A DNA stretch of 64,000 nt from an uncultured bacterium (GCA_903936565.1 CAIZVZ010000001.1:29401-93400), one strand, 5' to 3'. Positions 3,473-26,917 are shown, counted from the first letter of the stretch. Made by a program: numbers and translations. The notes: generated by a model from the letters alone, not told the origin.

Positions 3473-3721
3473 ATGAAAAATAAATTCTTAAGTCAGCTAT
3501 CTAATCGCCCAAGAGAAATTAACAACAAAGGCTTTATAGAGATCATAGTTGTAATTATTGTTGCTCTCGTATTACTTAATCTAATTGGAATAGATTTAAA
3601 AGCCGTTTTAGCTAAGGAGTCCGTTAAGCAATTCTTTGGATATGCTAAGGATATGACAATCCTAGTTTGGAATGATTTAAAACTAATTGTGGAGTTTATA
3701 AGAAATTTGGCGAACAACTAA
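3473..3721 (+). CDS. small membrane protein, hypothetical
   Basis: 82 aa ORF with one clear TM helix (IEIIVVIIVALVLLNLIG); an antisense ORF overlaps it, so the strand call is tentative. Confidence 0.3.
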   Translation: MKNKFLSQLSNRPREINNKGFIEIIVVIIVALVLLNLIGIDLKAVLAKESVKQFFGYAKDMTILVWNDLKLIVEFIRNLANN

Positions 3722-3806
3722 TCAATAAACAACTAATCAAAAGTGCCCCCGCCAAGATTTGTAAATCTACTTGCGGGAGCGACGAAATGTACCACACCAC
3801 CAGGTA

Positions 3807-4244
3807 TCAGAGAACCCTGATATTGGTGGTGGCGCCAATAAGGTGGCGGAAAACCTGAACGAAGATCTCGTAGCCATCGTGCGGATTCTCAACACGATGA
3901 CGAACTTGAGCCAGAACGTCCGCCAACTCAGTGAAGAAATCCTTCTCTGCTGCCGTAGTTGGTGTAGAGCAATCTGCATTATTGGAGACCCCGCAAATAA
4001 ATTCCGTAGAATGGATTGCGATTGTGTCACCGGTGCAGATTTCTTCCGGTTGAATTTTTGCTTGATAGAGTGCGGCTATGGCACCTCTTTGTTCCGGTTG
4101 CCAATCTGCCCAGAGCAATTGTATTGGTTTCATATTTCGATTACTAGCTTGGTGTTTGATTCGATTTGTTGCGTTAGGATTCGCGATTATTACAACAAAG
4201 GTCTCACTAAAGACATTTGCGATCACGGACCCATTTCCCAACAA
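3807..4244 (-). CDS. hypothetical protein encoded in a GC-rich islet (coding strand ambiguous; a 160-aa ORF also exists on + at 3771..4253)
   Basis: Local GC and GC3 clearly above flanks; minus-strand product less Cys/Arg-biased than the + alternative; imperfect hairpin plus T-run downstream on minus (3745-3790); TGA stop. Confidence 0.3.
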   Translation of the reverse strand: MLGNGSVIANVFSETFVVIIANPNATNRIKHQASNRNMKPIQLLWADWQPEQRGAIAALYQAKIQPEEICTGDTIAIHSTEFICGVSNNADCSTPTTAAEKDFFTELADVLAQVRHRVENPHDGYEIFVQVFRHLIGATTNIRVL

Positions 4245-4876
4245 ATTGACTAATTTTTGACGTCACAGAATCGCTCTACAGGCTCGATAAAATATCCAGA
4301 CGATAATTTATACCTATATGTTTTAATCAAAAAGTATTTATTTAAGTATAAATTACTTTTCGTTTTTTTGATCTTAACCTAGTCTGATTTTACGAAACAA
4401 GAGGGAAGTGGCCATCTAGCCAAATCCATTAATTCCCAAAACCTGTTCTAAGTTAAAATTTCAAAATCCACATACATAAGTCAGATCCAAGTCCGAGGAA
4501 AATGATATACCATAAGTCGCTCATGGTCAAAGAAAAGAGGATGCTTAACAGGTCAACATAAGCCAACTTCAAGCTAAAATCAATTTTATAGCCGAGGTAG
4601 CAACGGCCCTTATTTATATATATGTATGTCGCAAAAGATATATTGTGCGACGTGCCTATATTCTTAAACCCCGTTTCCCTGCATCCATTAAGGCCAGCTG
4701 ATTGATTGCGCTAAAATTGTTTTGAATTTCAAAACTGCCGGACTCTCCCACCTTTTAACTTTTATGAAAACTTTTCTACTTTAATTATTCAAATTTGAAA
4801 TTTCGTGAATTTTTGAAATTTGGCATAACTTAGCCAGCAGGCACCACTTCCCCGTTTTTGATAAAATTTCAACTGA

Positions 4877-5269
4877 CTAGGCTACTTGGCGGATCTCCAA
4901 AAACAGACTTAGACTATCAAGCGGAACAAAACTTATAGCAAAGCAATCTAACCCCATATCATTTGTTTGTTCTGAGAAGTAAATAGGCTTACCCTTTGCT
5001 ACTGCATACCCAAGTTCAAGCTTACAACTTGTTCCCATGTAGCCGCCTGGGGTTATCAAGTAAACAATATCGGCAGTATTGATGGCGTCGTAGTGTTCCA
5101 GGGCGAGCCTTTTCTTTTCCTCAATAGAGTCAGCATCATCTTTATTATTTGAACTGTAATCAATATTAGGAAAAAGAGGTTCTAGTCCAAGACCCTTTAG
5201 TTCAGCAATGGTGTTACGGACCAGATCACGATATTTCATACTACATCCAAGGACAATTTTCATGGGCAC
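4877..5269 (-). CDS. nucleoside 2-deoxyribosyltransferase-like / DNPH1(Rcl)-like protein
   Basis: Motif ADIVYLITPGGYMGTSCKLELGYAVAKGKPIYF matches the conserved ...S.G...E.GYA.A.GKP.. core of the 2-deoxyribosyltransferase-like Rossmann family. Confidence 0.5.
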   Translation of the reverse strand: MPMKIVLGCSMKYRDLVRNTIAELKGLGLEPLFPNIDYSSNNKDDADSIEEKKRLALEHYDAINTADIVYLITPGGYMGTSCKLELGYAVAKGKPIYFSEQTNDMGLDCFAISFVPLDSLSLFLEIRQVA

Positions 5270-5282
5270 ATTTTAGTATAGA

Positions 5283-5318
5283 ACATAACAAAACACCACC
5301 CCTTTCGGAGCGGTGTTT
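5283..5318 (-). terminator. rho-independent terminator (imperfect hairpin aacaccacccc/ggagcggtgtt followed by T-tract on minus strand)
   Basis: Hairpin plus T-run read on minus strand, downstream of CDS 5399..6037. Confidence 0.45.
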
Positions 5319-5398
5319 TGTTTAGATAGTTTTTTTATTCTGTGCAATGAATATTACATATCACTAATTGCAACTTCGTGGCCACTTATCTCCACTTG

Positions 5399-6037
5399 TT
5401 ACTTAATATTATCAGCTAGTATTTTGTTAGTATTGGCAGACATAGCCTTAGCTACTTCTGACTTTTTCCAACAAGGAGCTGATGATATCCATGGGGCTGT
5501 ACCCTCTTCCTCGTAAAGCAACTTGGCATATGCCATGTTACCCTCTGCGGAATAGATATCCATTCCCAACTTCTTAGCACGCTTTGCGTGGTAATATTCA
5601 TTAACTTGAGCTATACCAATGTCTTGGCTATTAGCTATTCCTCTAAGGGCAGTACCGTCTGCGTTAAATTGTCTAAATCTTGACTCACATTTAACGATCT
5701 CTGCCATTATAGGCGTATCCTTGAAATATAATCTAACCTTACTTTCTATTTCTGCGTTTCTATCAAGTTTAACTGTCTTTGCTTCTGGAGCTGCAACAGC
5801 ATCATTAATTGACTCTGCCTCTGCTACCTTAACAAAACTGATTTGTCTTGAAGATGTTGCGGTTATTGATGATTGTGTACTGGTTTCAGTTATCACAGGA
5901 TTGTCTGTTCCTACCATACCGGAAACAATCATCGCCATACCTATTGTAAGTTGTAAAATAAAGAATCTATTATGTTTGTAATGCGCATGTCTATGTCTGA
6001 GTTGGCTATACGCTTGCACGGAACTTAAAAAGCACAT
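5399..6037 (-). CDS. membrane-anchored lytic transglycosylase-like (lysozyme-like fold) protein
   Basis: N-terminal TM helix; C-terminal CESRFRQFNADG...DIGIAQVNEYYH resembles the family-1 lytic transglycosylase ES...GLMQ catalytic region. Confidence 0.5.
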   Translation of the reverse strand: MCFLSSVQAYSQLRHRHAHYKHNRFFILQLTIGMAMIVSGMVGTDNPVITETSTQSSITATSSRQISFVKVAEAESINDAVAAPEAKTVKLDRNAEIESKVRLYFKDTPIMAEIVKCESRFRQFNADGTALRGIANSQDIGIAQVNEYYHAKRAKKLGMDIYSAEGNMAYAKLLYEEEGTAPWISSAPCWKKSEVAKAMSANTNKILADNIK

Positions 6038-6283
6038 CCTTATGTGCTATGCCAATATACTAGCATGGCCAGCCAAATAAGTCAACCATTTTAGGGGTAC
6101 TTTTACCCCCTAAAAACACTAAAGTAGGGCTATACATAAGGATATAATCAATACAATATAGTTGACTATGCGTCAATCTATGTGTTTTAGTTTTAAGCCT
6201 TAAACATAGCCGTACAATCTTAAAAATGCCAATTTGGTCATTTTGGTATTATCCACATCCTCCACCCTAAAATACTTGACTTC

Positions 6284-6520
6284 TTATTTTGTCTTCTTAG
6301 CGGGCCTTTTCTTACTTTGCATCAAGATATCGTTCTGAAGGGTTAACTCCTTTTTAAAGGTCTCTCCTGCCCTATCAAGGGTCTTTGTATCGCAATTAAG
6401 GACAATACTAGCCGGCGTTCTATAGAGCCGTAGTAGATAAACCAATAAGCCGAAATTAGCCACCCCCAAGAGGATTGCTACCATGAAAATCCAAAAATGT
6501 ATTGATATTTTACTCATCAT
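6284..6520 (-). CDS. small membrane protein, hypothetical
   Basis: 78 aa with one TM helix (FWIFMVAILLGVANFGLLVYLL), basic C-terminus. Confidence 0.35.
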   Translation of the reverse strand: MMSKISIHFWIFMVAILLGVANFGLLVYLLRLYRTPASIVLNCDTKTLDRAGETFKKELTLQNDILMQSKKRPAKKTK

Positions 6521-6680
6521 AGGTTATACTGATGACCACTTCTCATATGGCACCAGCTGGGATATCATCTCATGATCGCCCCAAAGAAGTCATAAAGATT
6601 TTATAAAGATTTCCAAATTTTTAATAGAGTCTCAAAAGGAATGTTTTAAAATCCCAAATAACACAAAATAAGATAATAAT

Positions 6681-6953
6681 ATGGCAACAAAAAAAGCTGG
6701 AGGTTCAGCTAAAAACCTAACAGATTCAAATCCACAATACCTAGGTATAAAACTATACGCAGGTGAGCGTGCTCAAACTGGATCAATAATCGTAAGACAA
6801 AGAGGAACAAAGATCATGGCTGGTAAGAACGTAGGAGTTGGTAAAGACCACACTCTATACGCAACAGCCCCTGGTGTTGTAGAGTACTCAACAAAGAGAA
6901 AGGTAGACTTCGATAACAAGGTAAGCAAGAAGAAGGTTGTTAATGTTAAATAG
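6681..6953 (+). CDS. rpmA: 50S ribosomal protein L27
   Basis: [12 protein letters not shown]...[11 protein letters not shown]...GKDHTLYA is the canonical L27 sequence. Confidence 0.92.
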
Positions 6954-6986
6954 GTAGAACCCTTAAACTTTACAGTTAATAAAATG

Positions 6987-7013
6987 CCCGCCGTGATTGG
7001 CGGGTGTTTTGTT
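6987..7013 (+). terminator. rho-independent terminator of rpmA (cccgcc-gtgatt-ggcggg then TGTTTTGTT)
   Basis: 6-bp GC stem, 6-nt loop, T-tract immediately after; 34 nt downstream of the rpmA stop. Confidence 0.6.
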
Positions 7014-7028
7014 GGAATAATATTTCAG

Positions 7029-7061
7029 ATAAAAAAATAGACGCCGGCAGATTTGCCGGCG
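7029..7061 (-). terminator. rho-independent terminator for minus-strand gene 7089..8249 (cgccggc-agattt-gccggcg plus T-tract on minus)
   Basis: Perfect 7-bp GC stem; complement of aaaaaaata supplies the U-tract on minus strand. Confidence 0.55.
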
Positions 7062-7088
7062 CCCGTAGGTGCCACACTATTGAACTCG

Positions 7089-8249
7089 TCAGCCGTTACC
7101 GTTACTGCCATTGTAGTTGTACGGCGGATAGTACGGATCTGCTGGTTCCACGACATCCCCGATATTCCAAGCGGGGATTACGTAGTAGATGCCAGGCTCC
7201 GTGATGGGTAGGTTGAAACTCATAACGTTTTGGGTCGTATCAAGGCTTGGGGTGTAGGACACCCATTGCGAAGTCCCCGATTTCCGAACCAAAGCCGATG
7301 TAAACCATTTTCCTTCCGTGGTCCAAAAAGACACCTTGGAAGTAAGTGGGTGAGTCACCTTCAGCTCGGCAGTGATGTTGTCACCGTACCCACCTTTGAC
7401 GGTTGGAACGGCCACAAAGACATCACAGTCTTGCAGAGTAACCGTGCCCATAATACTCGCTTGGAACCTGGCGGCGTAGGCTGCGGAGCGCACTGGAACT
7501 CCACCTTTCCCAACATTCCAATACACCCAGTTGCCGACATAGGTACCATTGGTGTTAGGAGAAACGTGATTTGGTTGATTGCTAGTGTAAACCGCAAGAA
7601 TCCGATTCCCGCCCGTAAGCTGTTTTGGGTAGTAAACTTTCCCATTGCTGACCTGCAGGTTGTGGGTGTTCTGAGTACGACCGTTATCATCCAGTTCGTC
7701 CACAAACGCCGATTCGGCGCCGGGGATTGAAATTGGAATCAAGTCGGCCATTTTCAGGGCAAGACTCTTGTAGTCCTCAGGCATCACGTGGTTACCGTGC
7801 GAGTCCGTCACCAACATGAATTGTTTGGACCCACTAAATAGCAAGTCCCAATTGTCGTTGTAAACGGCTGCCCACGTGAAGAGTGGGTCGTCGTAGTTGA
7901 CCACGTCCACAGACAAACTAATGCTGTGGATGGTGTTGATAATCCCCGCGGCTGAGGCTTCCATCACCAAGGTCTGCGCGTTTGCCTTGTTACCGGTCGG
8001 CAGAGACGCGCTGATACTGATCGAGACACCGTACGCCTGTTCCTCGGCATAGGTCTGCAACATGTGCTTCGACATCAGCATTGGAAGCGCTGACTGGTTT
8101 GCCGGAGTGACCATTTGCTGAACCTGAGTGATCGGGGTTGGCGCCGATGGGACGGTTGGAGTTGATGTTGGTTCCCCCTGCCCTAGCGCGGTGAGCGCAA
8201 GGAGGGCCGATGTGATTAGCGCGCTGAGCGCATTGATTTTCGTTTTCAT
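7089..8249 (-). CDS. secreted hypothetical protein (signal peptide), GC-rich island gene 1
   Basis: N-terminal MKTKINALSALITSALLALTALG signal; GC and GC3 far above genome background; TGA stop. Confidence 0.6.
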   Translation of the reverse strand: MKTKINALSALITSALLALTALGQGEPTSTPTVPSAPTPITQVQQMVTPANQSALPMLMSKHMLQTYAEEQAYGVSISISASLPTGNKANAQTLVMEASAAGIINTIHSISLSVDVVNYDDPLFTWAAVYNDNWDLLFSGSKQFMLVTDSHGNHVMPEDYKSLALKMADLIPISIPGAESAFVDELDDNGRTQNTHNLQVSNGKVYYPKQLTGGNRILAVYTSNQPNHVSPNTNGTYVGNWVYWNVGKGGVPVRSAAYAARFQASIMGTVTLQDCDVFVAVPTVKGGYGDNITAELKVTHPLTSKVSFWTTEGKWFTSALVRKSGTSQWVSYTPSLDTTQNVMSFNLPITEPGIYYVIPAWNIGDVVEPADPYYPPYNYNGSNGNG

Positions 8250-8311
8250 GCGATTTCTGTATTTCCTGTATTTTCTGTGTTTGCTTTTTCTGTACCTATT
8301 CGTTGTTCTTG

Positions 8312-8572
8312 CTATTCTTCCAATGTTGGGCTGATGCGCAGCCCGTCAAAGTGAAGTACTTTTTTCCCATCAGCCGCGGACTGCGGATGTGGTGTTGCGA
8401 CCAACTCCTTTGCGGGAGTGGCCGTTGATGTTTGTTCACCCTGGGAAGGTTTGAATTTTCCACAGACGATAGCAATGGCGCCCAAAAGGCACACCACCGC
8501 GACAATAATGCTCGGTTTGTTCATTTTCATATTCAGTTGGCAAAGATTCACTGCCAAAAAGAACCGTATCAT
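8312..8572 (-). CDS. small secreted/lipoprotein-like hypothetical (likely start at internal MKMNKPSIIVAVV, ~8530)
   Basis: Signal-like segment IIVAVVCLLGAIAIVCG; inside the GC-rich island. Confidence 0.4.
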   Translation of the reverse strand: MIRFFLAVNLCQLNMKMNKPSIIVAVVCLLGAIAIVCGKFKPSQGEQTSTATPAKELVATPHPQSAADGKKVLHFDGLRISPTLEE

Positions 8573-8709
8573 GATTTGATATATATGTCAATAGTGCTCA
8601 TTGAAGATACATCTAAAATACTAAGTATTATAAGGATAATATTTAACAAAAAATCACCCCGACTCTCGCGAGCCGGGGCGTGGGGATGTAACCCAAACAT
8701 AATGAATGG

Positions 8710-9969
8710 TCAACCGCCCGGTTTATTCAGACGGTAAAATTGCTGAGCTGGTACGGAACCAGGTTGGCCGATAATCACGTACGCCATGTCACCCAGCGTT
8801 GAGGTGTAGAGGTATCCGTTGGCTTCCGCCACCAAAATCCTCTTCCCATCACCAGACATGGTCGCTGAGACAAAACGATACTGGTCGAAAGCACCAGAAC
8901 TGAGACACCCCGTTTTCATGGAATCCTCGGATGTGAAAATCCGACTTCTCCAGTCACCCAGGGCAACAATCTTGGTACAAGTCATATCGCTTGAGATGGA
9001 AGCCATTCCTTGTGCACCAGACGCTGAGGTTTGACTCCAGTTTGTTCCGCTGTCCATCGACATCCAGATCTCACCCCAGTGGGTAATCGAGATCAGTTTA
9101 CTTCCATCCGACGAGGATACTGCCGAAAGCCAGACATAGCTATTGCTGTAGTCCGTACCGTTAACAACTCCGTCGAGTGGATTTGGGATTCGAATCCATG
9201 TAGCACCACCGTCAGTTGATCGATACCTAGAACCACCGTTCACGAGCGCAAGCAACTTGAGCCCAGTTGAATCGGACGCGACTGCCGTCCAATTACGCAT
9301 ACCTGCGGCGGTACATGCTATCCACGACACACCTGAGTCCGTCGAGGTATAAATGTAGCCGTTTTGAACCGCTCCCGCCAGCCTCGTACCATCTGAGGAT
9401 GATGCGATTGCCACCCAGTTACGAGTAGTGTCAGATGTCCTTTGCATCCAAGTGAGACCAGCGTCAGTAGAGGTGTAAATATATCCGTACTTCACACCTG
9501 CCGCCAACTTGTTGCCACCTGCGCTTGTCGTAATACAACTCCATGCTCTTACTCCAGAAGCGACCGATTCCATCCACGTAGCACCGCTATCAGCGGATGT
9601 GCGGATGTTGGCATTAGTCGCGATAGCAACCAGCCTGGAGCCATCAAATGAAGAAGCTGTACCGACCCATGGTCGCTTAGCATCTGTCAGATGTGGAGTC
9701 AGAGCGGGGCCAGAAGCCGTACTAACATGATGCCAACCAGCCAAGTCAGCCGACTTTTCAACATCATAGTAACCGAGGGGTTTGGAAACCCATCTCAGCA
9801 CTGCGGGTGTCGTATCTGTTGCTGGCGAATAGGCCACCCCTTGCTGACCGATAACTTGCCCATGAGACAGTGAGCTTGCGCCCATCAACCCAAGTAGCGT
9901 CATCAAAGTCGCCAAGGCAAACCTTGCGAATCTCGTTGCAGGTCTTCCCTGCTTTGTATTTGTTTTCAT
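8710..9969 (-). CDS. secreted BNR/Asp-box repeat beta-propeller protein (sialidase/Ycf48-like fold)
   Basis: Signal peptide; at least five Asp-box motifs SxDxGxTW (YTSTDAGLTW, YTSTDSGVSW, RSTDGGATW, TSADSGATW, SMDSGTNW); GC-rich; TGA stop. Confidence 0.7.
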   Translation of the reverse strand: MKTNTKQGRPATRFARFALATLMTLLGLMGASSLSHGQVIGQQGVAYSPATDTTPAVLRWVSKPLGYYDVEKSADLAGWHHVSTASGPALTPHLTDAKRPWVGTASSFDGSRLVAIATNANIRTSADSGATWMESVASGVRAWSCITTSAGGNKLAAGVKYGYIYTSTDAGLTWMQRTSDTTRNWVAIASSSDGTRLAGAVQNGYIYTSTDSGVSWIACTAAGMRNWTAVASDSTGLKLLALVNGGSRYRSTDGGATWIRIPNPLDGVVNGTDYSNSYVWLSAVSSSDGSKLISITHWGEIWMSMDSGTNWSQTSASGAQGMASISSDMTCTKIVALGDWRSRIFTSEDSMKTGCLSSGAFDQYRFVSATMSGDGKRILVAEANGYLYTSTLGDMAYVIIGQPGSVPAQQFYRLNKPGG

Positions 9970-10048
9970 CGTTGTTCTTTTTCTTTCTGTGGTTTGATCA
10001 ATTTCAGTTTGATTTTTATTTTACACCTAAGCCCGTTAGACCTAGCGC

Positions 10049-11374
10049 TTGATTTCAGAGTGGACAGAAAGTCCGAAAATAAGAATACATCAAATTTGCA
10101 AAATGTCACCCCTAACCTTGACCCATCACCTTAACCTATGTTATAAAAAATATATGACTAATTTATCTAATGTGTCCGCCAGTGTCGGTCTTATCCCCCA
10201 CCAAATAATATCAACCTTCCTTTCAGTATCAATGAAGGATGTTTTTGATATGGTAATAGTGGCAATTTGTATATATCTTGTCCTAATCTTCATAAAGCAA
10301 ACAAAATCAACATTTATACTAATCGCCACCGTTGTTCTATTTAGCATAAACTTCATTTCCCAGGAATTTGACCTCGCACTAACTAGAAGAATTTTTGAAC
10401 CCCTACTCACCTTCTTTATCGCAATCTTCATTATTGTTTTTCAACCTGAGATTAGAAAGTTCTTCAAATGGATTAGTGCTGGAAGAAAGACAACTTTTGC
10501 AAAAGCCCTTTCACTTCCTGAAGAAAACGCTGAGACAATTGTAAGGTCAGTTTTTGAGATGGCAAAGAAACGCGTTGGCGCAATTATCGTTCTACCTGGT
10601 CAATACCCCCTTGATGACTTAATTGAAGGAGGTTTTCCTCTGGATGGTAAGATATCAATGCCCTTAATATTAAGTATTTTTGATTCATCTTCTCCTGGGC
10701 ACGACGGCGCTGTTTTAATCGAAGGTTCTAGAATAAAAATGTTTGGACTACACCTACCACTTGCTCGTGAGTTTTCAGAATACAGTAGAGTTGGAACAAG
10801 ACATCGTGCAACTGCCGGCATCACAGAAAAAACAGACGCTCTTGCAATCGCAGTATCTGAAGAGCGTGGTGAAGTTTCAATTTCTCAAGGCGGTAAATTA
10901 ACAAAAGTTAACACACCAGAGGAGCTGGCAACTGTGATTCAAAAATTTATGGATACAGAAAGTGATGCATCTGACAGCACCAAGAGTCTTAGCCACTATT
11001 TTCTAGTTAAAAATAGTTACACAAAAATTGCCGCGATATTACTCTCAATAATTTTCTGGTTCTTCCTCATTCACGCAGCTGGAATTGTTAAAAGCACCTA
11101 CACAATTCCTGTTGAATTCAAATATCTAAAGGATGACAAAACAATCAGCGCTGATTCAAAAAGTACAATAAAGGTTACTGTAACTGGAAACAACAAGGAT
11201 ATCGCAGGATTAAAACCAGAGGATATTCATGCTGTGATTGATGCAAGTAATTTTAAGATTGGTGAAAATGATTTAGAAATAAATCAAAGTAATATCAAGC
11301 TACCTTCGTATATTGAGCTGGATTCTTTTACACCAAAGACCTTAGAGATTAGCACAAAAGCAATCGTGAATTAA
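10049..11374 (+). CDS. cdaA: diadenylate cyclase CdaA fused to a C-terminal YbbR/CdaR-like domain (true start possibly downstream, e.g. ~10154 or ~10232)
   Basis: Three N-terminal TM helices, DAC domain motifs DGAVLIEG...LGTRHRATAGITEKTDALAIAVSEERGEVS, then a further TM and a YbbR-like beta-rich domain (TIKVTVTGNNKDIAGLKPEDIHAVIDAS...). Confidence 0.75.
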   Translation: MISEWTESPKIRIHQICKMSPLTLTHHLNLCYKKYMTNLSNVSASVGLIPHQIISTFLSVSMKDVFDMVIVAICIYLVLIFIKQTKSTFILIATVVLFSINFISQEFDLALTRRIFEPLLTFFIAIFIIVFQPEIRKFFKWISAGRKTTFAKALSLPEENAETIVRSVFEMAKKRVGAIIVLPGQYPLDDLIEGGFPLDGKISMPLILSIFDSSSPGHDGAVLIEGSRIKMFGLHLPLAREFSEYSRVGTRHRATAGITEKTDALAIAVSEERGEVSISQGGKLTKVNTPEELATVIQKFMDTESDASDSTKSLSHYFLVKNSYTKIAAILLSIIFWFFLIHAAGIVKSTYTIPVEFKYLKDDKTISADSKSTIKVTVTGNNKDIAGLKPEDIHAVIDASNFKIGENDLEINQSNIKLPSYIELDSFTPKTLEISTKAIVN

Positions 11375-12978
11375 AGCGGAAGATGATCTCCGTCCCCCAT
11401 AAAAATGGTCTTATTCTCACTCGTCATATTCTTCATGAATTTATTGATCCGCTCGTCAATCATTATGTGACGTCTAATCAAAGGTGTTTTCAAAATCATA
11501 CCTTCTAGACTTCTGCATCTACTAAGCGCAACGTAAGCTTGACCATGCGTAAATGTTCCTCTACCAAAGTCAACTATCACATTATTGTATGTCTTACCCT
11601 GCCCCTTATGAATTGTAATCGCCCAAGCGAGCCTGATTGGAAATTGTGCAAATGTTCCAACAACATCCGTGTCAACTGAGTCAAAATCTTTATCATATGA
11701 AAATTTAACCATCTCCCAAGTATATTTTGGAACGAGCGCCTCTGTCCCATTCTCAAGTCTCACATAAATTTCTTGCTTATATTCATTTATTTTTGTCACC
11801 GTTCCCAAATCGCCATTAACCCACCTCCCCTCTTTGTCATTATTGAGCATCATGATTCTAGCGTTCTCCTTAAGCGCCAAATCCTCATTGGTTGGTAAAT
11901 TTCTTTCAAACATTCCGCTTTTCTTGCCTTTAAAAATTATTTTATTTGTTTCAAGTTCATTCAATTTTCCATTATTAATTGCATCCGCCATGGCGTTTGT
12001 TGTAACTAGAAAAATATAATCATTGAATATTGAAGGATCTAGATTATCATCCGCAGGGTCTTGATGTCTTTTATTTAACAAATCTAAATGTGAATCTCTA
12101 ATATTTCCACTTCTTATGCCTTCCAAAATATCTATAAATTTACTATCGTCCTGTCTGTAAATTTTATTCAATTCAATTAATTTAAAATCAGCATCAACAA
12201 AAACTTTTGAGTCAAAAAAGTACGGGCTTTTGTAATATGATGAAAACATTTCCTCTTCATAACTTGTCACGACCGGTGGAAGTTGAAACAAATCCCCTAC
12301 CGCTATAATTTGCACACCACCAAATGGCAGATTTTTATTTTTTCCATTTAGACGCATGAACATGTCTACGCAATCAAGCAAATCTGCCCTAACCATTGAA
12401 ATCTCATCGATGATTATGGAATCTAAGTTTTTGTAAATTGCAGTGCTTCCTGTTGCTTTTTTTATTGAGACAGGGCTGACGTTTATTCCAAATTTAAAGA
12501 AAGAGTGAATTGTCTGTCCGCCAATGTTCACAGCTGAAACTCCAGTTGGTGCAAGAATCACAACTTTCTTTTTTGTGTTTTCTTTGAAGTATCGGAGGAG
12601 TGTCGTCTTTCCTGTTCCCGCCTTTCCTGTTAAAAAAATATTTTGTGACGTGCTCTCCATCGAGTTCAGAGCCATTAGTGTCTCATCGCTCAATTCAATT
12701 TTTTCTCCATTTATATAAAAACCATCTTTTTTTGATGCACCATTTACGCCATCACCCACTCCGCTCGCTTCAGCCTTTTCTCTTTCAATTTTAGCCAAAG
12801 TCTTTTTAAAAGTCTCCGTTTTTGATGGGCCAGTTTTTTTCTTAGCGCCACCTGTGCCGCCAGTATATTTTTTAAATTTAGAATATGAGGAAAATGCCAT
12901 AGCTAGAATTATATCACACAGAAGCACAAGCCTACTCTTAAAATTTCCAAAAAGTAGTTTATAAATAATTATTAACAT
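11371..12978 (-). CDS. Pif1-family (RecD-like SF1B) ATP-dependent DNA helicase (start probably at internal MAFSS, ~12900)
   Basis: Walker A LTGKAGTGKTTLL, APTGVSAVNIGGQTIHSFF, C-terminal TIHKGQGKTY...GQAYVALSRCRSLEGM typical of Pif1. Confidence 0.8.
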   Translation of the reverse strand: MLIIIYKLLFGNFKSRLVLLCDIILAMAFSSYSKFKKYTGGTGGAKKKTGPSKTETFKKTLAKIEREKAEASGVGDGVNGASKKDGFYINGEKIELSDETLMALNSMESTSQNIFLTGKAGTGKTTLLRYFKENTKKKVVILAPTGVSAVNIGGQTIHSFFKFGINVSPVSIKKATGSTAIYKNLDSIIIDEISMVRADLLDCVDMFMRLNGKNKNLPFGGVQIIAVGDLFQLPPVVTSYEEEMFSSYYKSPYFFDSKVFVDADFKLIELNKIYRQDDSKFIDILEGIRSGNIRDSHLDLLNKRHQDPADDNLDPSIFNDYIFLVTTNAMADAINNGKLNELETNKIIFKGKKSGMFERNLPTNEDLALKENARIMMLNNDKEGRWVNGDLGTVTKINEYKQEIYVRLENGTEALVPKYTWEMVKFSYDKDFDSVDTDVVGTFAQFPIRLAWAITIHKGQGKTYNNVIVDFGRGTFTHGQAYVALSRCRSLEGMILKTPLIRRHIMIDERINKFMKNMTSENKTIFMGDGDHLPL

Positions 12979-13062: not shown

Positions 13063-13503
13063 CTATGACACGGCAACAGCAGGTGGAGGTGGAAATGGGA
13101 TAGGATCCATATCACCCTCCGTCCACGGAGGAAGATCCGGCACATCTGTCGAATCACCAACGGCCGCAACACCAGAATCAGGATTCGACAAGTCCACACC
13201 CACGAGCAAGCTCTTGAAGTGTACCCGTTCAATTTTGCTGTATTTCCAGCGGATTTTAAGCATTTTGGCTTTCGCCTCCAACTTATCCACGGTTTTCAGG
13301 CCGAAGCCCTTTAGAACCAGCAAGGCTTCCGTGCCCAGCCGTCCAAGGTCTTTCAAGGTCTTCAATTGTTTCGATCCGCTCCGCCGGTTATTACACAGAC
13401 GGATACCCTCGATAGCCCTCTTGCTCAGGCCTAAGGTGGCGATGTCGAGGTTTCTGTTGATTGGGGCAGTTTTTCTCGCTTTTCTCTTTGATTTCATTGA
13501 CAA
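13063..13503 (-). CDS. stand-alone RNA polymerase alpha-subunit C-terminal-domain-like (HhH) protein, GC-rich
   Basis: LDIATLGLSKRAIEGIRLCNNRR...LKTLKDLGRLGTEALLVLKGFGLKTVDKL resembles alpha-CTD helix-hairpin-helix; Pro-rich tail; GC well above background. Confidence 0.45.
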   Translation of the reverse strand: MSMKSKRKARKTAPINRNLDIATLGLSKRAIEGIRLCNNRRSGSKQLKTLKDLGRLGTEALLVLKGFGLKTVDKLEAKAKMLKIRWKYSKIERVHFKSLLVGVDLSNPDSGVAAVGDSTDVPDLPPWTEGDMDPIPFPPPPAVAVS

Positions 13504-13665
13504 ATATTCCTCAGTTCGTTGTTTTAGGTGCTCTTCCTGGCGCGTCCAGCACTAGGGATTGCCGACGTGAATCATAAAACTTAATCAAATATATGTCAAT
13601 GATATATCAGTCAGTAAACTTCTCGATTCATGTATGTAAATAACTTTCAGATTTAATATAAAAAA

Positions 13666-13700
13666 TGTTGGCACCGAACTCTTCACGAGCTCGGTGCCAG
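13666..13700 (-). terminator. hairpin (ggcaccgaact...agctcggtgcc) plus T-tract on minus strand, downstream of lipoprotein gene; a second short hairpin ggcagt-attt-gactgcc follows at 13704-13720
   Basis: 10/11-bp stem read directly, T-run on minus strand. Confidence 0.4.
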
Positions 13701-13731
13701 ATGGCAGTATTTGACTGCCGGCAGTTTGGCC

Positions 13732-14226
13732 TTACTTCACTCCAGCAACCAAGCGGGGTGAACCAATGTGGTCATCGTAGGTGGTAGCGTTATGGTTCCC
13801 GATCTGCGCCAAGGTATTGCTACCTAAGTTGGAAGGCGGAAGGTCCAGGGTGCCAAAGTCGACCCAATAGGTCTCGCCCGCCTTGAAGTTCCCACTCACC
13901 AAGATCGGCTTCAGCGAACAAACCATCACCTGCGGATTGACGTGGTCCAACTTGGCCAACTCACAGGTGAGTGTGTGCTCACCAGGAGTGAGGAATGCGA
14001 TCCTCGACCCTGCCACCTTTTTGCCGACCTTCTTGCCGTCGATTTCACGAACAGCGATGGCCATCGAGCCCTTGAGGTTGCCACCCCTCGCGGTAACGAG
14101 CTTGATCTGCGCCATTTTCGTGGCGTCTGCGGTCCCCAGTCCTCCGATTGGCGTGCACGACGGCAAAGCCGGCAAAGCAATAGTGAGGATAATAAGGGCG
14201 AATTTCTTTAGTAGTGTTGCTTTCAA
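13732..14226 (-). CDS. lipoprotein, hypothetical (apparent TTG start), GC-rich
   Basis: Signal peptide with lipobox-like ALPSC; elevated GC. Confidence 0.5.
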   Translation of the reverse strand: MKATLLKKFALIILTIALPALPSCTPIGGLGTADATKMAQIKLVTARGGNLKGSMAIAVREIDGKKVGKKVAGSRIAFLTPGEHTLTCELAKLDHVNPQVMVCSLKPILVSGNFKAGETYWVDFGTLDLPPSNLGSNTLAQIGNHNATTYDDHIGSPRLVAGVK

Positions 14227-16008: not shown

Positions 16009-16338
16009 TTAGTTTTTATGCACCGAACAAATGTTTTCGATCATCGCCACAACCGTGGCGAGACATAGGATGCTTTGGATCAGCAGGATCTCTGCTGGCA
16101 CCACGAGGGTGCACATCAAGATATTGCGGGTGGACCAAAGGCAACGGCCTCCGTCAACTCCATGATAGAACATGGGGAATTTGATGGAGGACCGGAGGAT
16201 AAGACCAATCCAAAGATAGAAAGCGAAGATTATCGGTAGGTAAATTACCCACACGGCGGCGGTGTGTGTCCACGTCGCGTGGACACCATCAGGATTCAGA
16301 TTCATACTTAATGGGGGTTGGTGTGTTCTGCAGTCCAC
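16009..16338 (-). CDS. small membrane protein (~3 TM), GC-rich islet
   Basis: 109 aa, hydrophobic helices, GC higher than flanks, own terminator. Confidence 0.4.
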   Translation of the reverse strand: MDCRTHQPPLSMNLNPDGVHATWTHTAAVWVIYLPIIFAFYLWIGLILRSSIKFPMFYHGVDGGRCLWSTRNILMCTLVVPAEILLIQSILCLATVVAMIENICSVHKN

Positions 16339-19646: not shown

Positions 19647-21452
19647 TTAACATTCAGAACTCTGAGTGTACTGCCGGCAAAGTTCCCGAAACTCGGGGCA
19701 ATTGGCCATCAATTCATCATACGTTCCGCTTGCAATAATTCTACCATTTGCAAACATACAAACTCGATCGAAGAGTGGAAGAAGGTGAAGTTTGTGAATC
19801 GAGGAAATCATGGTTTTACCCGGAAAGCCCTCGAACATATCTCCATATACCCTTCTCTCAGTTCTCACATCGAGACTACTAGTGGGTTCATCAAAAAGCA
19901 ACATTTCCTTATCCGAGTCCGCGCAAGCAAGAAGCCCACGAGCCAAGGCAAGACGTTGCTTCTCGCCACCACTAAGACTTACCCCTTTCTCATTCATCAT
20001 GGAGTCCAAACCCTTCGGTAATCTCGCAATTACATCGGTAAGCCCGGCCATTTCCACATAACGCATAATTTCAGCGTCAGTGTAATCCGCACCAAGCGTG
20101 ATGTTCTCGCGAATAGTCGCAGCGAAAATCTCTGCCTCTTGCGGGACAAGAGTAATCGCTCTAGCAATTCCATCAAAGCCATGAGAAATTTCCCGTCCAT
20201 CCACCGAAAGATTTAATGACGATGGGTGATAAAGATTACGCATGACCTTGAGGAATGTAGTTTTACCACTACCACTCTCTCCTACTACAGCAATTTTTTC
20301 ACCGCTCCTAATCTCCAGCGACACGTCATCCAAGTGGAGCCTCGACGACTCCCCTACGTCTCCGTAGGAGAATGACAAATTACTAATACTGAGGCTTTGC
20401 CAACCTTTTGGCAATACGTGATTCGAAAAGCTCTCATCACGAAACGCACTGGAAAGCTCTTCGGCGTTTGACACGCTTGCTCGACGCATAACCGTATCGC
20501 TGTACAAGTAATTAAACCTGCTGAAGATGTCACTCATGTTACCTAGATACTTGTACAGCAAAAATACCTCTCCAAACAATGTACCACCTTTTGCGCCGAT
20601 GTGACTTAGAAAATACGCACCAAGGACTATTGCCACCATACTCGAGCAACACATTGAACTGACAAACCATTTGATTTCATTCAGCTGACTATTTCTCCTA
20701 AACAACGCATATGGCGCTTCTGTCTTCTTAACAATCGCATTAAAGACAAGCTTCTCTACACGAAGGACAATGACTGTCACAACATTGGCGATTGCATCGA
20801 CAATACTTGCGGAAATCTTGTTATCGTTTTGATTCAGCTCACGATATTGGACTATCAGTATTCTATCAAAGCGCATTACGATCCAGAACGTGAACACCAT
20901 CATGATGACCACGACAGCCGCCGATGGTGGAAACAGAACAGCAAGCGCGATGAAGCTCCCGAAGAATCGTACAAGCGCATAAATAATTTCGAACGAGTTT
21001 TTCGTAAACTGATACAAGGCTTGAATGCCCTTCTCAATCTTGTCGATAATCCCTCCCGAATGCTGACCAGCATGCCATTCCAGTGGAAGCGTAAAAATAC
21101 CTCGAAGGAGGTGCTTCCTATATGCAAGACGGACCTTGAATCCGTTCCCGGTTTCCATCACCCTTGCAGGGCCGTGCATAAGCCAAAAGAAAGCCATTGC
21201 ACCGACGGTTCCAGTTAACAACAGAAGTAGAGGGCGAATGTTGTCATTCGTTATTCCCTCACTCTGAATGATATTCATAATCTTGGCCCAAATCTGCGGC
21301 ATGACAACAACATCAAAAGTCTCCGCGAGGATAAAGATTATCCAAACGAAAAGAACAATTTTTCTGTTGCCTACCGAATAGTGCCAAGCCTCTTTGAAGA
21401 GGTACGCGAGCGGATTAAGCCCACCTTTTTTAGACTTAGTTTTCGATTTCAT
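19647..21452 (-). CDS. ABC transporter, fused permease/ATP-binding (exporter type)
   Basis: Six N-terminal TM helices; Walker A GESGSGKTT, signature LSGGEKQRLALARGLL, Walker B LLFDEPTSSLD. Confidence 0.88.
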   Translation of the reverse strand: MKSKTKSKKGGLNPLAYLFKEAWHYSVGNRKIVLFVWIIFILAETFDVVVMPQIWAKIMNIIQSEGITNDNIRPLLLLLTGTVGAMAFFWLMHGPARVMETGNGFKVRLAYRKHLLRGIFTLPLEWHAGQHSGGIIDKIEKGIQALYQFTKNSFEIIYALVRFFGSFIALAVLFPPSAAVVVIMMVFTFWIVMRFDRILIVQYRELNQNDNKISASIVDAIANVVTVIVLRVEKLVFNAIVKKTEAPYALFRRNSQLNEIKWFVSSMCCSSMVAIVLGAYFLSHIGAKGGTLFGEVFLLYKYLGNMSDIFSRFNYLYSDTVMRRASVSNAEELSSAFRDESFSNHVLPKGWQSLSISNLSFSYGDVGESSRLHLDDVSLEIRSGEKIAVVGESGSGKTTFLKVMRNLYHPSSLNLSVDGREISHGFDGIARAITLVPQEAEIFAATIRENITLGADYTDAEIMRYVEMAGLTDVIARLPKGLDSMMNEKGVSLSGGEKQRLALARGLLACADSDKEMLLFDEPTSSLDVRTERRVYGDMFEGFPGKTMISSIHKLHLLPLFDRVCMFANGRIIASGTYDELMANCPEFRELCRQYTQSSEC

Positions 21453-21987: not shown

Positions 21988-22512
21988 ATGAAGAAAATCA
22001 GAACACTCAAACCTGGCACCGTTTGTCGGGATAAAGCCACCGAACTCGATGGGACGATCACCCACTGGCTCTGCAACATGGGTCATGGGATTGAATACAT
22101 CTTTCAGCCCAAAGGCCTGAATGAATTTGGTCAACCCCTGCCGTGGATAAGGTTGGAATTAGAGCGGCTCGAAACCACGGACGATATGTTCGAGGAGGTC
22201 GATGTCCCTGTAGAAATCCTCGCCAGTCAAGTTACCGACAACGCCAGCGGCTTTACTGGTATGGCCGTGGGATTCGTCCGTCACATCAACGGATGCTTCC
22301 ACGTTGCCATCCAGCCGAAGGGCGTCCTGGAGAAGACAAAGACGCCAGTGAAACGGCTCGATTTTGACCTTCGCCAATGTAGCGGAGAGATGATCACCAA
22401 GATGACCGAAGAAGAGCTGGCGGCCAGTAAGCTGTCAAGGCCTTCTCCCGCTGGATGCGTCACTGATGACGGTCTTCCGTCGTCTTGCTCAAACACAGGC
22501 TTCTCGGAGTAA
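21988..22512 (+). CDS. hypothetical protein, GC-rich islet
   Basis: 174 aa, no TM, GC clearly above flanking DNA, own strong terminator. Confidence 0.4.
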   Translation: MKKIRTLKPGTVCRDKATELDGTITHWLCNMGHGIEYIFQPKGLNEFGQPLPWIRLELERLETTDDMFEEVDVPVEILASQVTDNASGFTGMAVGFVRHINGCFHVAIQPKGVLEKTKTPVKRLDFDLRQCSGEMITKMTEEELAASKLSRPSPAGCVTDDGLPSSCSNTGFSE

Positions 22513-22589: not shown

Positions 22590-24899
22590 TTATAGTGATG
22601 TCTTAACAACAGACATTGTTTTTGGTCCAAAATAACCCGAGGCAGGCGTTATCTTATTTGCCTTTTGATACTTAATTAAAGCAGCTTTTGTTGCTGGTCC
22701 AAATTTAGCACTTTCCTTACCTTTTGATCCAACGCCACTTTTTGCAACAAGAAACTTATTGTTATTTAAAAATTGTTGAAGCATCTTTACATCTTGTCCT
22801 GTCATGCCAAGTTTTAAATCACGTAAGAAAGACGCTTGTGATGATTGTAAATCAGATGATGAACTATATCTACAAAGCGCCGGTGAACTTGATGCAAAAA
22901 ATTCGTAGTTTAATGCTTTTGGATCTTTACATCCGTATATGATACTACCCGAAGAAGACTGGCCAAACGTTTGAGTTGAAACTGCAGGTTGAGCACTAAC
23001 ATTTATTGCAAAGGTTGCTGCAATACTATGTGCTGTTGTGACGTTAGTAAATCCATAAGAAGCAACCGGTCCAACAGAAACACCGTCAATCAATACATCC
23101 ACAGTGTGGTAGTTAGCTGATGGAGTAATGGTATAAACTTGAGAAGCACCATCATCTAGTGACGTTACCCCACTTGGACTAATCGTACCATTTGGTCCAG
23201 CTGATATAGTGATGGTGTGAGCAGTGGGAGAATTATAACGAGAGAGGTAAACATGAGAAACAAAGGCACTATTGTATTGTGGATATGTTACGTAAATATT
23301 ATTAGTTAAGTCCACTGCTATTTGAGGTGAGGAAACTGGATGAGCTACACCGAGGTCAATTGGAGTACCACTAGCAAAAGTATTGGTCCACGCAGACGCA
23401 TCACCATTCCAAATCCTAACATCTGTTCCATCATAACGTGAAAGATATATTTGGGGGTATGGATTAACGTTGGTATATTGCTGGTAAGTTACATAAACCT
23501 TACCATTTGTGTCTATAGCCAATTGAGGTACGGTTGCATCTTTTACTATACCCGTATCTATTGGATCACCATTCGCAAAAGTTGTGGTCCACGTAGATGC
23601 ACCGTTATCCCAAATCCTAACATCAGTACCATTATAACGTGAAAGGTAAATATGATTTTTTGTACCATTTGACTGATAATAAGTTACATAAACTCTACCG
23701 GTTGAATCTACTGCAACTTGGGGTGTGATCGCGCTTTGAGCTATACCTGTATCTATTGGAGTACCATTTGCAAAAGCTGTGGTCCATGATGAAGTGTTAC
23801 CGTCCCAGATTCTAACGTCGGTGCCATCATATCTAGAAAGATACACATGTAGATTAGAGCCATTACTCTGCTGATAAGTTATATAAACCCTACCCGCTCC
23901 GTCAACAGCCAATTGATTAGAATAAGCATCGTTTGCAGTACCGGTGTCTATAGGATCACCGTTAGCAAAAGTCGTGGTCCAAGATGAAGAATTACTATCC
24001 CAAATTCTAACATCAGTACCATCATAACGTGAAAGGTAGATGTGACTTTTAGCGCCATCTGATTGAGAATAAACTAAATAAACTTTGTTGGTTGAATCTA
24101 CAATTAGCTGTGGTTCAGAAGAACTATTAGCTGTACCCGTATCTACCGGAGTACCACTAGCAAAAGTATTGGTCCACGCAGACGCATCACCATTCCAAAT
24201 CCTAACATCTGTTCCATCGTAACGGGAAAGGTAGATATGAGTACTTACACCGTCAAATTGAAAATATGTTAAATAAACTTTATTATTTGAATCAATAGCC
24301 AACTGCGCAGAGCTAGCAGAGCTCGATATACCTGTATCTATTGGAGTACCATTTGCAAAAGTTGTGGTCCATAATGAAGTGTTACCATCCCAAATTCTAA
24401 CGTCTGTGCCATTATATCGGGAAAGATAAATATGGGTCACGAAACTGACTGTCTGTTGATAAATGACATAGACATTGTTATTGGCATCAATTGCCAATTG
24501 AGGTGCATTAGCATTATTTGCTGTGCCAAGGTCAATTGGAGTACCGCTAGCGAAGTTATTTGTCCATGCAGATGCGTCACCATTCCATATTTTAACATCC
24601 GTGCCGTCATGACGAGAAAGGTAGATGTGACTTGCGGAACCATTGGACTGTTGGAAAACAGTATATACCCTACCGTTTGAATCTGTAGCAACCTGAGGTG
24701 TTAATGCATTTTGAGCTATACCAGTATCTACTGGAGTACCGCTAGCCAAGGTATTTGTCCATGCGGATGCGTCACTATTCCAAATCTGCACAGATGAACT
24801 CGCCGCTGCCTTTGATGAGATTCCAAAAAATATAAAAACTGACACTAGTAAAATAATAGTAAATTTCTTATTCAACACCAAGGATGATATTTTAGACAT
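22590..24899 (-). CDS. cell-wall-associated repeat protein: signal peptide, ~10 tandem ~48-aa repeats, InlB-B-repeat-like domain, C-terminal peptidoglycan-binding (PG_binding_1-like) domain
   Basis: Repeat consensus IWNGDASAWTNTFASGTPIDTG....PQLAIDS.NKVYVTYQQS.G...HIYLSRYDGTDVR; TISAGPNGTISP...YTITPSANY; C-terminal GMTGQDVKMLQQFLN...ATKAALIKYQKANKI. Confidence 0.7.
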   Translation of the reverse strand: MSKISSLVLNKKFTIILLVSVFIFFGISSKAAASSSVQIWNSDASAWTNTLASGTPVDTGIAQNALTPQVATDSNGRVYTVFQQSNGSASHIYLSRHDGTDVKIWNGDASAWTNNFASGTPIDLGTANNANAPQLAIDANNNVYVIYQQTVSFVTHIYLSRYNGTDVRIWDGNTSLWTTTFANGTPIDTGISSSASSAQLAIDSNNKVYLTYFQFDGVSTHIYLSRYDGTDVRIWNGDASAWTNTFASGTPVDTGTANSSSEPQLIVDSTNKVYLVYSQSDGAKSHIYLSRYDGTDVRIWDSNSSSWTTTFANGDPIDTGTANDAYSNQLAVDGAGRVYITYQQSNGSNLHVYLSRYDGTDVRIWDGNTSSWTTAFANGTPIDTGIAQSAITPQVAVDSTGRVYVTYYQSNGTKNHIYLSRYNGTDVRIWDNGASTWTTTFANGDPIDTGIVKDATVPQLAIDTNGKVYVTYQQYTNVNPYPQIYLSRYDGTDVRIWNGDASAWTNTFASGTPIDLGVAHPVSSPQIAVDLTNNIYVTYPQYNSAFVSHVYLSRYNSPTAHTITISAGPNGTISPSGVTSLDDGASQVYTITPSANYHTVDVLIDGVSVGPVASYGFTNVTTAHSIAATFAINVSAQPAVSTQTFGQSSSGSIIYGCKDPKALNYEFFASSSPALCRYSSSSDLQSSQASFLRDLKLGMTGQDVKMLQQFLNNNKFLVAKSGVGSKGKESAKFGPATKAALIKYQKANKITPASGYFGPKTMSVVKTSL
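23324..24791. repeat. ~144-bp coding tandem repeats (~10 copies) within 22590..24899
   Basis: Recurrent near-identical DNA blocks (e.g. gcaaaagt(t/c)gtggtcca...tcccaaattctaacatc) matching the 48-aa protein repeat. Confidence 0.6.
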
Positions 24900-26841: not shown

Positions 26842-26917
26842 TGGTGGACCCGACAGGACTCGAACCTGCCACCCCCTCAGTGCAAGTGAGGTGCTCTACC
26901 AGATGAGCTACGGGCCC
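26842..26917 (-). tRNA. tRNA-Ala (anticodon UGC), CCA encoded
   Basis: Minus-strand sequence GGGCCCGUAGCUCAUCUGGUAGAGCACCUCACUUGCACUGAGGGGGUGGCAGGUUCGAGUCCUGUCGGGUCCACCA folds as a 76-nt cloverleaf; G3:U70 Ala identity pair; anticodon loop CUUGCAC; T-loop UUCGAGU. Confidence 0.9.

Follow-up and report, generated by a model that had tools for sequence, protein, structure and literature searches.

How did three genes for exported-looking proteins, all GC-rich (rich in guanine and cytosine), come to lie side by side in an AT-rich bacterial genome, and did they come together? The question is raised by a 64,000-nucleotide (nt) stretch of DNA from an uncultured bacterium (GCA_903936565.1, CAIZVZ010000001.1:29401-93400), here called the window, to whose first letter all positions refer unless a relative is named. 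A preliminary description had read positions 7066-10048 as one horizontally acquired island carrying two hypothetical proteins and an Asp-box beta-propeller, with a carbohydrate- or host-interaction role. We hold, with moderate confidence, to another view, in which the block represents a flexible "secretome slot" of composite make-up, lying in an AT-rich Patescibacterium between rpmA on one side and cdaA/pif1 on the other, with two independent expression units that both look foreign in composition and are of different ages. Unit A is the gene of a 419-amino-acid (aa) propeller protein (8710..9969, minus strand). Unit B is a two-gene cassette, also on the minus strand, whose first gene (8312..8527) codes for a 71-aa single-pass membrane protein of signal-anchor type, with the C-terminal motif LHFDGLxxxPxxQ/E, and whose second (7089..8249) codes for a 386-aa protein of an unannotated family, with a signal peptide, a Pro/Thr-rich linker and an all-beta body of several sandwich domains.

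The compositional anomaly itself is real. GC is about 0.51 over 7.04-9.97 kb of the window versus 0.37; the 1-kb bins of 7001-10000 stand at 0.513, 0.488 and 0.517, with most other bins at about 0.33-0.40, and a 200-nt profile steps up at about 7000 and down at about 9900-10000. GC at third codon positions (GC3) is 0.628 in the 386-aa open reading frame (ORF; 7089-8249, stop TGA), 0.529 in the 86-aa ORF called mechanically at 8312-8572 (stop TAG) and 0.498 in the 419-aa ORF (8710-9969, stop TGA), compared with about 0.23-0.38 in typical genes of the window. At four-fold degenerate sites the same three genes have GC of 0.606, 0.548 and 0.436, and the 57 other ORFs of the window a median of 0.275 (standard deviation 0.126). 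Since these sites are GC-rich, and since G-ending codons are strongly enriched, in every four-fold family, the excess is not solely an amino-acid effect; in the propeller gene, about half of the overall excess does sit at codon positions 1 and 2 (GC2 0.574), where it was traced to a composition rich in Gly, Ala, Ser, Thr and Trp. Among 123 sliding windows of 2.9 kb, none departs further in tetranucleotide usage than the block (r = 0.11 to the rest), and in a GC-normalised dinucleotide signature it ranks third (109 versus a median of 55). Two of its three genes end in TGA, as had been described, versus 4 of the 58 others (Fisher p = 0.023), and all three are indeed on the minus strand. The enrichment is restricted to coding sequence (spacers within the block have a GC of 0.21-0.37, and host spacers 0.35), and GC3 is even along each gene; mosaic composition or a recombination breakpoint was sought there and none was seen. 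The block is also not alone, for at least ten other ORFs of the window are GC-rich at synonymous sites (for example 13063-13503, 13732-14226, 21988-22512 and 44906-45313), so that the genome is a compositional mosaic throughout rather than the bearer of one island.

The signals between the genes divide the block in two. At its left border, a terminator-like hairpin follows rpmA (the gene of ribosomal protein L27, 6681-6953) at 6976..7015 on the plus strand, with an 18-pair stem and then a T-run, and it is met by an intrinsic-terminator-like hairpin that would end the cassette at 7039..7064 on the minus strand (11 pairs, including 8 G-C, and then ATTTTTTTAT); the convergent terminators reported for this edge are thus both recognizable. 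Another intrinsic-terminator-like hairpin, of 11 pairs with 8 G-C followed by ATTTTTTGTT, would end the propeller gene (8655..8680, minus strand), and its region is kept in a related locus, L003, where a blastn match covers window positions 10108-8648. The cassette has a predicted promoter of its own at 8563..8591 on the minus strand, formed by TTGACA (8591-8586), 17 nt and TACGGT (8568-8563) within an intergenic spacer of 0.21 GC, and in an alignment a promoter of the TTGACA-17-TAnAnT type stands at the same place upstream of the small ORF in six of eight cassette loci. Because of the position of this promoter, the small gene probably starts at 8527 (71 aa) and not at 8572. The propeller gene has a promoter-like site at 10082..10109 on the minus strand (GTGACA-16-TATTCT), in an AT-rich spacer that it has in common with the divergent cdaA. 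The mechanical ORF of CdaA (10049-11374) starts at a TTG at 10049; public calls give it 400 aa and a start at 10172, which frees 202 nt as a divergent promoter region common to cdaA and the propeller gene. The separate promoters and terminators, the AT-rich spacers and the unlike GC at four-fold sites (0.44 for the propeller versus 0.61 for the cassette) lead us to regard the block as two apparently independent transcription units, each with an AT-rich promoter and a terminator of its own. An Rfam scan of the spacers for regulatory RNA at E <= 1 gave nothing but noise.

Just downstream of the propeller promoter lies a further conserved element, CGGACTTTCTGTCCACTCTGAA, with the palindrome GGAC-N5-GTCC (10054..10075, minus strand). 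It forms an invariant block in an alignment of four loci, occurs once in the window (0 copies expected by chance) and once in each of three relatives, L001 (12622-12642), L003 (1660-1680) and L008 (13180-13200), and is absent from nine other loci. The promoter is likewise conserved in L001, L003 and L008 (blastn conservation with L001 extends over 9963-10112), and both elements accompany the propeller gene even where its upstream neighbour differs. The palindrome could be an operator for some regulator or a hairpin of the 5' untranslated region; no covariation was seen.

How old, then, is the propeller gene in this lineage? Genus-level relatives (with a PIF1 helicase 93% identical to that of the window) carry full-length, colinear orthologues in the same slot: in L008 the gene adjoins cdaA and its product has 47% amino-acid identity, and in L001 it lies between pif1 and rpmA, with 42%. 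The copy in L003, a short contig, is 80% identical, including the promoter, the palindrome and the terminator, and has a different upstream neighbour. In a neighbour-joining tree of the propeller domain, the window's sequence and the relatives' orthologues form one clade against 30 other family members. Between the window and the genus-level relatives the propeller retains 42-48% amino-acid identity and the backbone proteins 71-98%; nonsynonymous divergence (dN) is 0.49-0.55 for the propeller and 0.01-0.15 for the backbone, where synonymous divergence (dS) is 1.1-3.2 and saturated. The same-slot orthologues, the conserved promoter and palindrome and the saturated backbone dS together argue for a gene that is old in the lineage, and that evolves 4- to 20-fold faster than the backbone at the protein level. 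Its GC3 is 0.45-0.51 across the four loci. This excess is not intrinsic to the family, because members elsewhere have the GC3 of their surroundings: 0.105 for one on a 0.25-GC contig and 0.525 for one on a 0.52-GC contig. Both were considered as donors and rejected, each being native in composition. The first of these contigs (L013, ENA GROS21-1 scaffold_6, 132,897 bp) is virus-like, with a gene set (a 1516-aa SNF2-type helicase, an Evr1/Alr sulfhydryl oxidase, HNH and Laminin_G_3 proteins, a TnpB-like gene) that recalls a giant virus or a very AT-rich symbiont.

The cassette has quite another distribution. Its 386-aa protein has no match in Pfam, NCBIfam, PHROG or the sequences of the PDB, and a word-index search returned only 12 relatives, one of them named Candidatus Parcubacteria; a full profile search of 1.84 billion representatives gave 341 family clusters (at 50% identity), 174 of them at E <= 1e-10, nearly all of 320-380 aa and matched over their full length. 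The family is large and divergent, with members of the cassettes only about 45% identical, yet uniform in size. Eight cassette loci were examined (the window, L005, L006, L007 and L009-L012), and in all eight a small ORF of 56-81 aa precedes the large gene by 41-71 nt, and its product has a membrane helix at the N-terminus and the motif LH(F/Y)xGLHxxPxxQ at the C-terminus (in L006 the small protein is a weak tblastn match). Their contexts are unrelated (dnaJ/trpS in one case, a restriction-modification system with an amidase in another, a YkuD/PBP gene and alr in a third), and in six loci besides the window, at Patescibacteria-like positions, tblastn gave no match to the propeller. In each of the 8 loci the large gene exceeds its flanks in GC (Wilcoxon p = 0.008), at 0.536 +/- 0.030 (GC3 0.53-0.71) versus 0.430 +/- 0.055, and its GC shows no significant correlation with that of its hosts (r = 0.36; hosts of 0.37-0.54 GC). 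L007, labelled Parcubacteria and with a genome GC of 0.54, is the sole locus where the cassette has a native composition. In L011 the cassette stands at one end of a 3.2-kb block (3600-6800) of 0.53-0.61 GC between flanks of 0.35-0.40; that block, a larger composite GC-rich island, also bears two metabolic-looking genes on the minus strand (177 aa and 512 aa).

The slot itself is variable. Between rpmA and cdaA/pif1, different genes for exported proteins are found in the window, in L001 and in L008. L001 has a Y1 transposase, a 230-aa protein, a PG_binding protein and a CAP protein there, and lacks cdaA at this place; L008 has a different 324-aa gene. The cassette is not in the same slot in either, and is patchy across genomes. 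The 230-aa gene of L001 was tried as a member of the 386-aa family and rejected (hhalign probability 0.1%). Downstream of the propeller in L003 come a small transmembrane ORF and a truncated, remote family member (hhalign probability 96%, E 5e-9, 28% identity); gene order is preserved, the cassette itself having been either swapped or diverged far beyond the propeller. The transposase of L001, of the IS200/IS605 Y1 type, lies between pif1 and the propeller (11692-12261) and is the sole mobility gene near the slot in any locus. Recombination peaks in the bordering genes can hardly be read from synonymous divergence (dS 3.2 for cdaA versus 1.3 for pif1), all values being saturated.

Before the origin of the two units can be discussed, one has to be sure that the block belongs to this genome. 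Exact copies of the 419-aa and 386-aa proteins were recorded on 28-29 contigs drawn from NCBI, JGI, ENA and Logan (in more than 50 blocks of the collection, the longest contig having 224,964 bp), and the neighbourhood was identical on all 13 contigs that were read. Because the arrangement recurs in independent assemblies, misassembly is excluded, and with it the worry that DNA of a GC-rich organism had been joined chimerically to an AT-rich contig. The GC steps at the two borders are indeed as sharp as an artefact of assembly or binning would make them; that the relatives hold GC-rich orthologues in the same slot, and that the AT-rich promoter upstream of the propeller is conserved along with the gene, leaves this explanation with a probability close to nil. 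The backbone genes around the block (those of L27, CdaA, the PIF1 helicase, DnaB, UvrC, Ddl and RmuC), and in particular DnaB, for which the relatives of 65-75% identity bear the names Parcubacteria, Paceibacterota, Taylorbacteria or "Patescibacteria group", show the host to be an AT-rich Patescibacterium of the Parcubacteria/Paceibacteria type.

The account that we favour would then run as follows. Unit A, a Sec-exported propeller, would have entered the lineage before the genus-level relatives diverged, and would have stayed beside its conserved promoter and palindrome while its synonymous sites were only partly adjusted to the host; its four-fold-site GC of 0.44, lower than the 0.61 of the cassette, fits such an older and partly ameliorated arrival. 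Unit B would be a self-contained cassette, made of a strong sigma-70-type promoter, the small membrane protein, an all-beta secreted protein of about 340-386 aa and a terminator. Its unrelated positions and its GC of about 0.54 irrespective of host GC are most readily accounted for if it spread horizontally among Patescibacteria, out of GC-richer lineages, and we presume that it moved by natural transformation. Both units would serve at the surface or in host interaction, as cell-surface or extracellular binding proteins for host-cell contact or exposed to phage; the propeller may be a non-catalytic ligand-binding platform, and the 71-aa protein may tether the beta-sandwich protein to the membrane. 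Diversifying selection, from host contact or from phage pressure, together with exchange, could account for the hypervariability.

Should one keep the simpler idea of a single recent island of three genes, which would have brought in a module for carbohydrate activity or host interaction from beyond the phylum, for example from Verrucomicrobiota or Bacteroidota? The strongly atypical GC and oligonucleotide signature and the enrichment in TGA stops speak for it, named matches of the propeller do include Verrucomicrobia, Flavobacteriales and Undibacterium, and the order of propeller, small ORF and family member recurs in L003. However, the orthologues of the propeller occupy the same slot and form one clade in relatives that have diverged to a backbone dS above 1, the AT-rich spacers are conserved between the window and relatives, the two units have separate promoters and terminators and unlike four-fold-site GC, the cassette lies without a propeller match in six other loci of Patescibacteria-like context, and the fold of the propeller is not that of a sialidase. 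We therefore do not retain the claim that the three genes were acquired recently and as one unit, and consider this explanation quite unlikely. Of the earlier proposal of horizontally acquired DNA, the foreign look of the synonymous sites is borne out; on the other side, the homology searches that were to find the donor lineage found none, and the propeller is monophyletic and present in relatives. A prophage remnant, a defence system or a target of a diversity-generating retroelement would be another way to bring hypervariable secreted proteins into the slot, and both the weak PHROG match of the propeller (1.5e-6, to an entry with no function assigned) and the family member on the AT-rich, virus-like contig could be read in that sense. 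The cassette proteins, by contrast, have no PHROG match, none of their relatives were found on viral contigs and no viral structural match was obtained; no reverse-transcriptase or integrase domain was detected in the window proteins that were scanned (the flanking genes included, though not every ORF), and retroelement-driven diversification was rejected in the absence of any pair of template and variable repeats involving the block. This origin is accordingly very unlikely, although the anti-phage defence library PADLOC lay outside these searches.

A further hypothesis is that all these genes are native and vertically inherited, their GC-rich codons being maintained by codon or messenger RNA selection, or by GC-biased gene conversion at recombination-prone, hypervariable surface loci. 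It would account for an enrichment that is confined to coding sequence and uniform along each gene, for a GC3 that persists in the propeller orthologues over saturated synonymous divergence, and for a cassette GC that is nearly constant over hosts of 0.37-0.54 GC despite an identity of about 45% among members; the GC-rich genes at 13063-13503 and 13732-14226 also have syntenic orthologues at only 31-36% identity. Against it, members of the propeller family in other genomes have a fully native GC3, the cassette sits at unrelated positions in different genomes, rpmA, although highly expressed, is not rich in GC3, and the effects known for biased gene conversion in bacteria fall far short of the roughly 30 points of GC3 that would have to be explained. 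We regard it as doubtful, and as a more serious competitor than those just discussed. The composite slot, which we continue to prefer, has its own difficulties. The propeller orthologues keep a GC3 of 0.45-0.50 in three lineages although backbone synonymous sites are saturated, and this persistence means that, for a single old acquisition, either the donor must have been very GC-rich or GC must be upheld by some force; neither the propeller's GC3 near 0.5 nor the constant GC of the cassette is fully explained. No direct or inverted repeats flank the block and no integrase or recombinase domain was found in the neighbouring genes scanned. A scan of GTDB species representatives with the propeller found only one Patescibacteria metagenome-assembled genome, at 32% identity, and no donor emerged for either unit. 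Variation of the propeller was tested for a focus on loops and the result was not significant, the variation not being concentrated there. The functional part of our account is based on visual reading of the signal peptides and on folds whose matches are weak or generic, the sample comprises four propeller loci and eight cassette loci, and the Patescibacterial nature of several short contigs was judged from neighbouring genes alone.

What kind of protein is the propeller? Read from the translation, it has a signal peptide, a small N-terminal beta segment, a seven-bladed Asp-box (BNR) propeller and a C-terminal FYRL tail. At least five SxDxGxTW boxes had been announced, and there are five canonical ones (SADSGATW, STDAGLTW, STDSGVSW, STDGGATW and SMDSGTNW) and two degenerate ones. 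The AlphaFold2 model is a single seven-bladed propeller (confidence score pLDDT 80), whose top Foldseek match is Ycf48 (5ojr, E 1e-14, TM-score 0.73 on the target, about 16% sequence identity), followed by generic WD40 and GH74 propellers, so that the suggestion of a Ycf48-like propeller holds for the fold; no sialidase is among its top 50 structural matches. In Pfam, Sortilin-Vps10 (32.2 bits, for a cut-off of 33 bits) and BNR both remain below their cut-offs and PSII_BNR gives no match at E <= 0.1; other profile hits are a weak GH74 and an NCBIfam "glycosylhydrolase" model well under its cut-off. The homologues, more than 1000 of them, come from Verrucomicrobia, Flavobacteriales, Undibacterium and Patescibacteria, and are labelled "photosystem II stability/assembly factor-like", "exo-alpha-sialidase" or hypothetical. 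Among the orthologues, the most conserved 20-residue bin contains an invariant loop between blades 4 and 5, RIPNPLDGVVNGxDY (residues 260-274, IPNPLDGVVNGTDYSNSYVW). This loop is the best-conserved non-structural segment, and its "RIP" resembles the FRIP of sialidases. The FRIP motif of sialidases, which also have an arginine triad and a Tyr/Glu nucleophile pair, lies in the N-terminal region, and the "RIP" seen here is in the middle of a seven-bladed protein; the likeness is probably coincidental. All three proteins of the block show N-terminal hydrophobic segments of signal type by direct reading, kept across homologues and signal-anchor-like in the small one, which agrees with the earlier impression that they are exported.

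The comparison with Ycf48/HCF136, the photosystem II assembly factor (PDB 5ojr, 2xbg), is instructive. Both are seven-bladed Asp-box beta-propellers of about 300 residues, but beyond the low identity and the missing PSII_BNR match, the present host appears non-photosynthetic (no photosynthesis genes in the window backbone), and the protein has in addition a signal peptide, the N-terminal beta segment, the RIPNPLDG loop and the FYRL tail. The classical Asp-box enzymes are the sialidases (GH33) and the GH74 xyloglucanases (PMC2716378), with which it has the SxDxGxTW repeats in common; GH33 sialidases are six-bladed, however, and GH74 enzymes have two tandem seven-bladed propellers, whereas here there is a single seven-bladed one. 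The protein, then, shares the fold of Ycf48 and neither its family membership nor its function, and is not a GH33 sialidase; the carbohydrate role proposed for it is not supported.

At the level of the locus, the nearest parallel is perhaps with the replacement flexible genomic islands of aquatic prokaryotes, in which islands for surface structures are replaced at fixed positions (Lopez-Perez, Martin-Cuadrado and Rodriguez-Valera 2014, PMC4033161). As in those islands, a fixed position is taken by genes that are alike in kind (here for exported proteins) but different or highly divergent, the hallmarks of integrases and repeats are missing, and a tie to exposed structures and to phage or host pressure is presumed. 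Those islands, however, differ among strains of one species and are mostly glycosylation clusters, whereas here the comparison is between genus-level relatives (dS above 1), single proteins are concerned, and the propeller is orthologous rather than replaced. With classical integrative islands the block shares atypical GC, codon and oligonucleotide usage and accessory secreted proteins, but it has no adjacent transfer RNA (tRNA) gene, integrase or flanking repeats (the only tRNA of the window, at 26842-26917, does not adjoin it), measures only 3 kb, consists of two units and is GC-enriched in coding sequence only. In groundwater Patescibacteria, hundreds of islands and single transferred genes have been reported, with most exchange within the phylum (PMC12455944), and such within-phylum transfer matches the distribution of the cassette; a term search of the main text of that paper found no mention of BNR or sialidase, and nothing was seen there on the cassette family or on GC constancy. 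The locus thus belongs with flexible or horizontally influenced surface-protein loci, and contains an undescribed protein family.

Patescibacteria spend their lives attached to other microbes, and little is known of the ways in which they recognize and hold their hosts. The locus offers two sorts of candidates for host recognition: a propeller that is lineage-specific, evolves fast and has a conserved regulatory element, and a two-gene cassette that lacks annotation and occurs across the phylum. It is also a clean example of how island calls based on composition can merge units of different age and origin, and the GC constancy of the cassette over hosts of 0.37-0.54 GC is a small puzzle for our ideas on gene flow and amelioration in streamlined genomes. 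One may go further and imagine, though we would rather bet against it, that an undescribed, promoter-bearing surface-protein cassette, with a small membrane anchor (LHFxGLHxxPxxQ) and a beta-sandwich protein of about 340 aa, circulates among Patescibacteria with a GC of its own near 0.54 whatever the host. If this were true, the cassette would have to be supplied by very frequent transfer from a GC-rich reservoir dedicated to it, or else be kept at its GC by an active force, such as selection or GC-biased conversion at hypervariable loci, and the same force would explain many other GC-rich, hypervariable small genes in AT-rich genomes.

Some of the other GC-rich genes of the window may be mentioned here. 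A second patch, at 13063-14226 (0.50-0.58 GC), has two minus-strand genes, for a 146-aa protein with a weak match to the RNA-polymerase alpha-CTD and for a 164-aa putative lipoprotein (lipobox LPSC); the orthologues of both are syntenic in L001 and diverged as stated above, and the flanking genes are 78-93% identical. Overall and synonymous-site GC are also elevated in ORFs 3771-4253, 16009-16338, 19647-21452, 21988-22512, 40322-40951, 43768-44163, 44906-45313 and 49429-50019. Most of these scattered ORFs are without a Pfam match, 19647-21452 being an ABC transporter; 16009-16338 is absent from the public gene calls of the contig, and 3771-4253, on the plus strand, overlaps a publicly called minus-strand gene (3807-4226). 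Cluster size at 90% identity was tried as a proxy of variability for such small genes and dropped, since it did not separate the GC-rich from the AT-rich ones. Finally, two large proteins are encoded elsewhere in the window. One, of 769 aa (22590-24899), has seven tandem repeats of 195 nt (65 aa) at 67-79% identity and a C-terminal PG_binding_1 domain, and is probably anchored in the cell wall; the other, of 1462 aa (28135-32523), combines an IPT/TIG domain with an 18-nt unit repeated in tandem over a short array (30914-31039), and is probably a giant surface protein.

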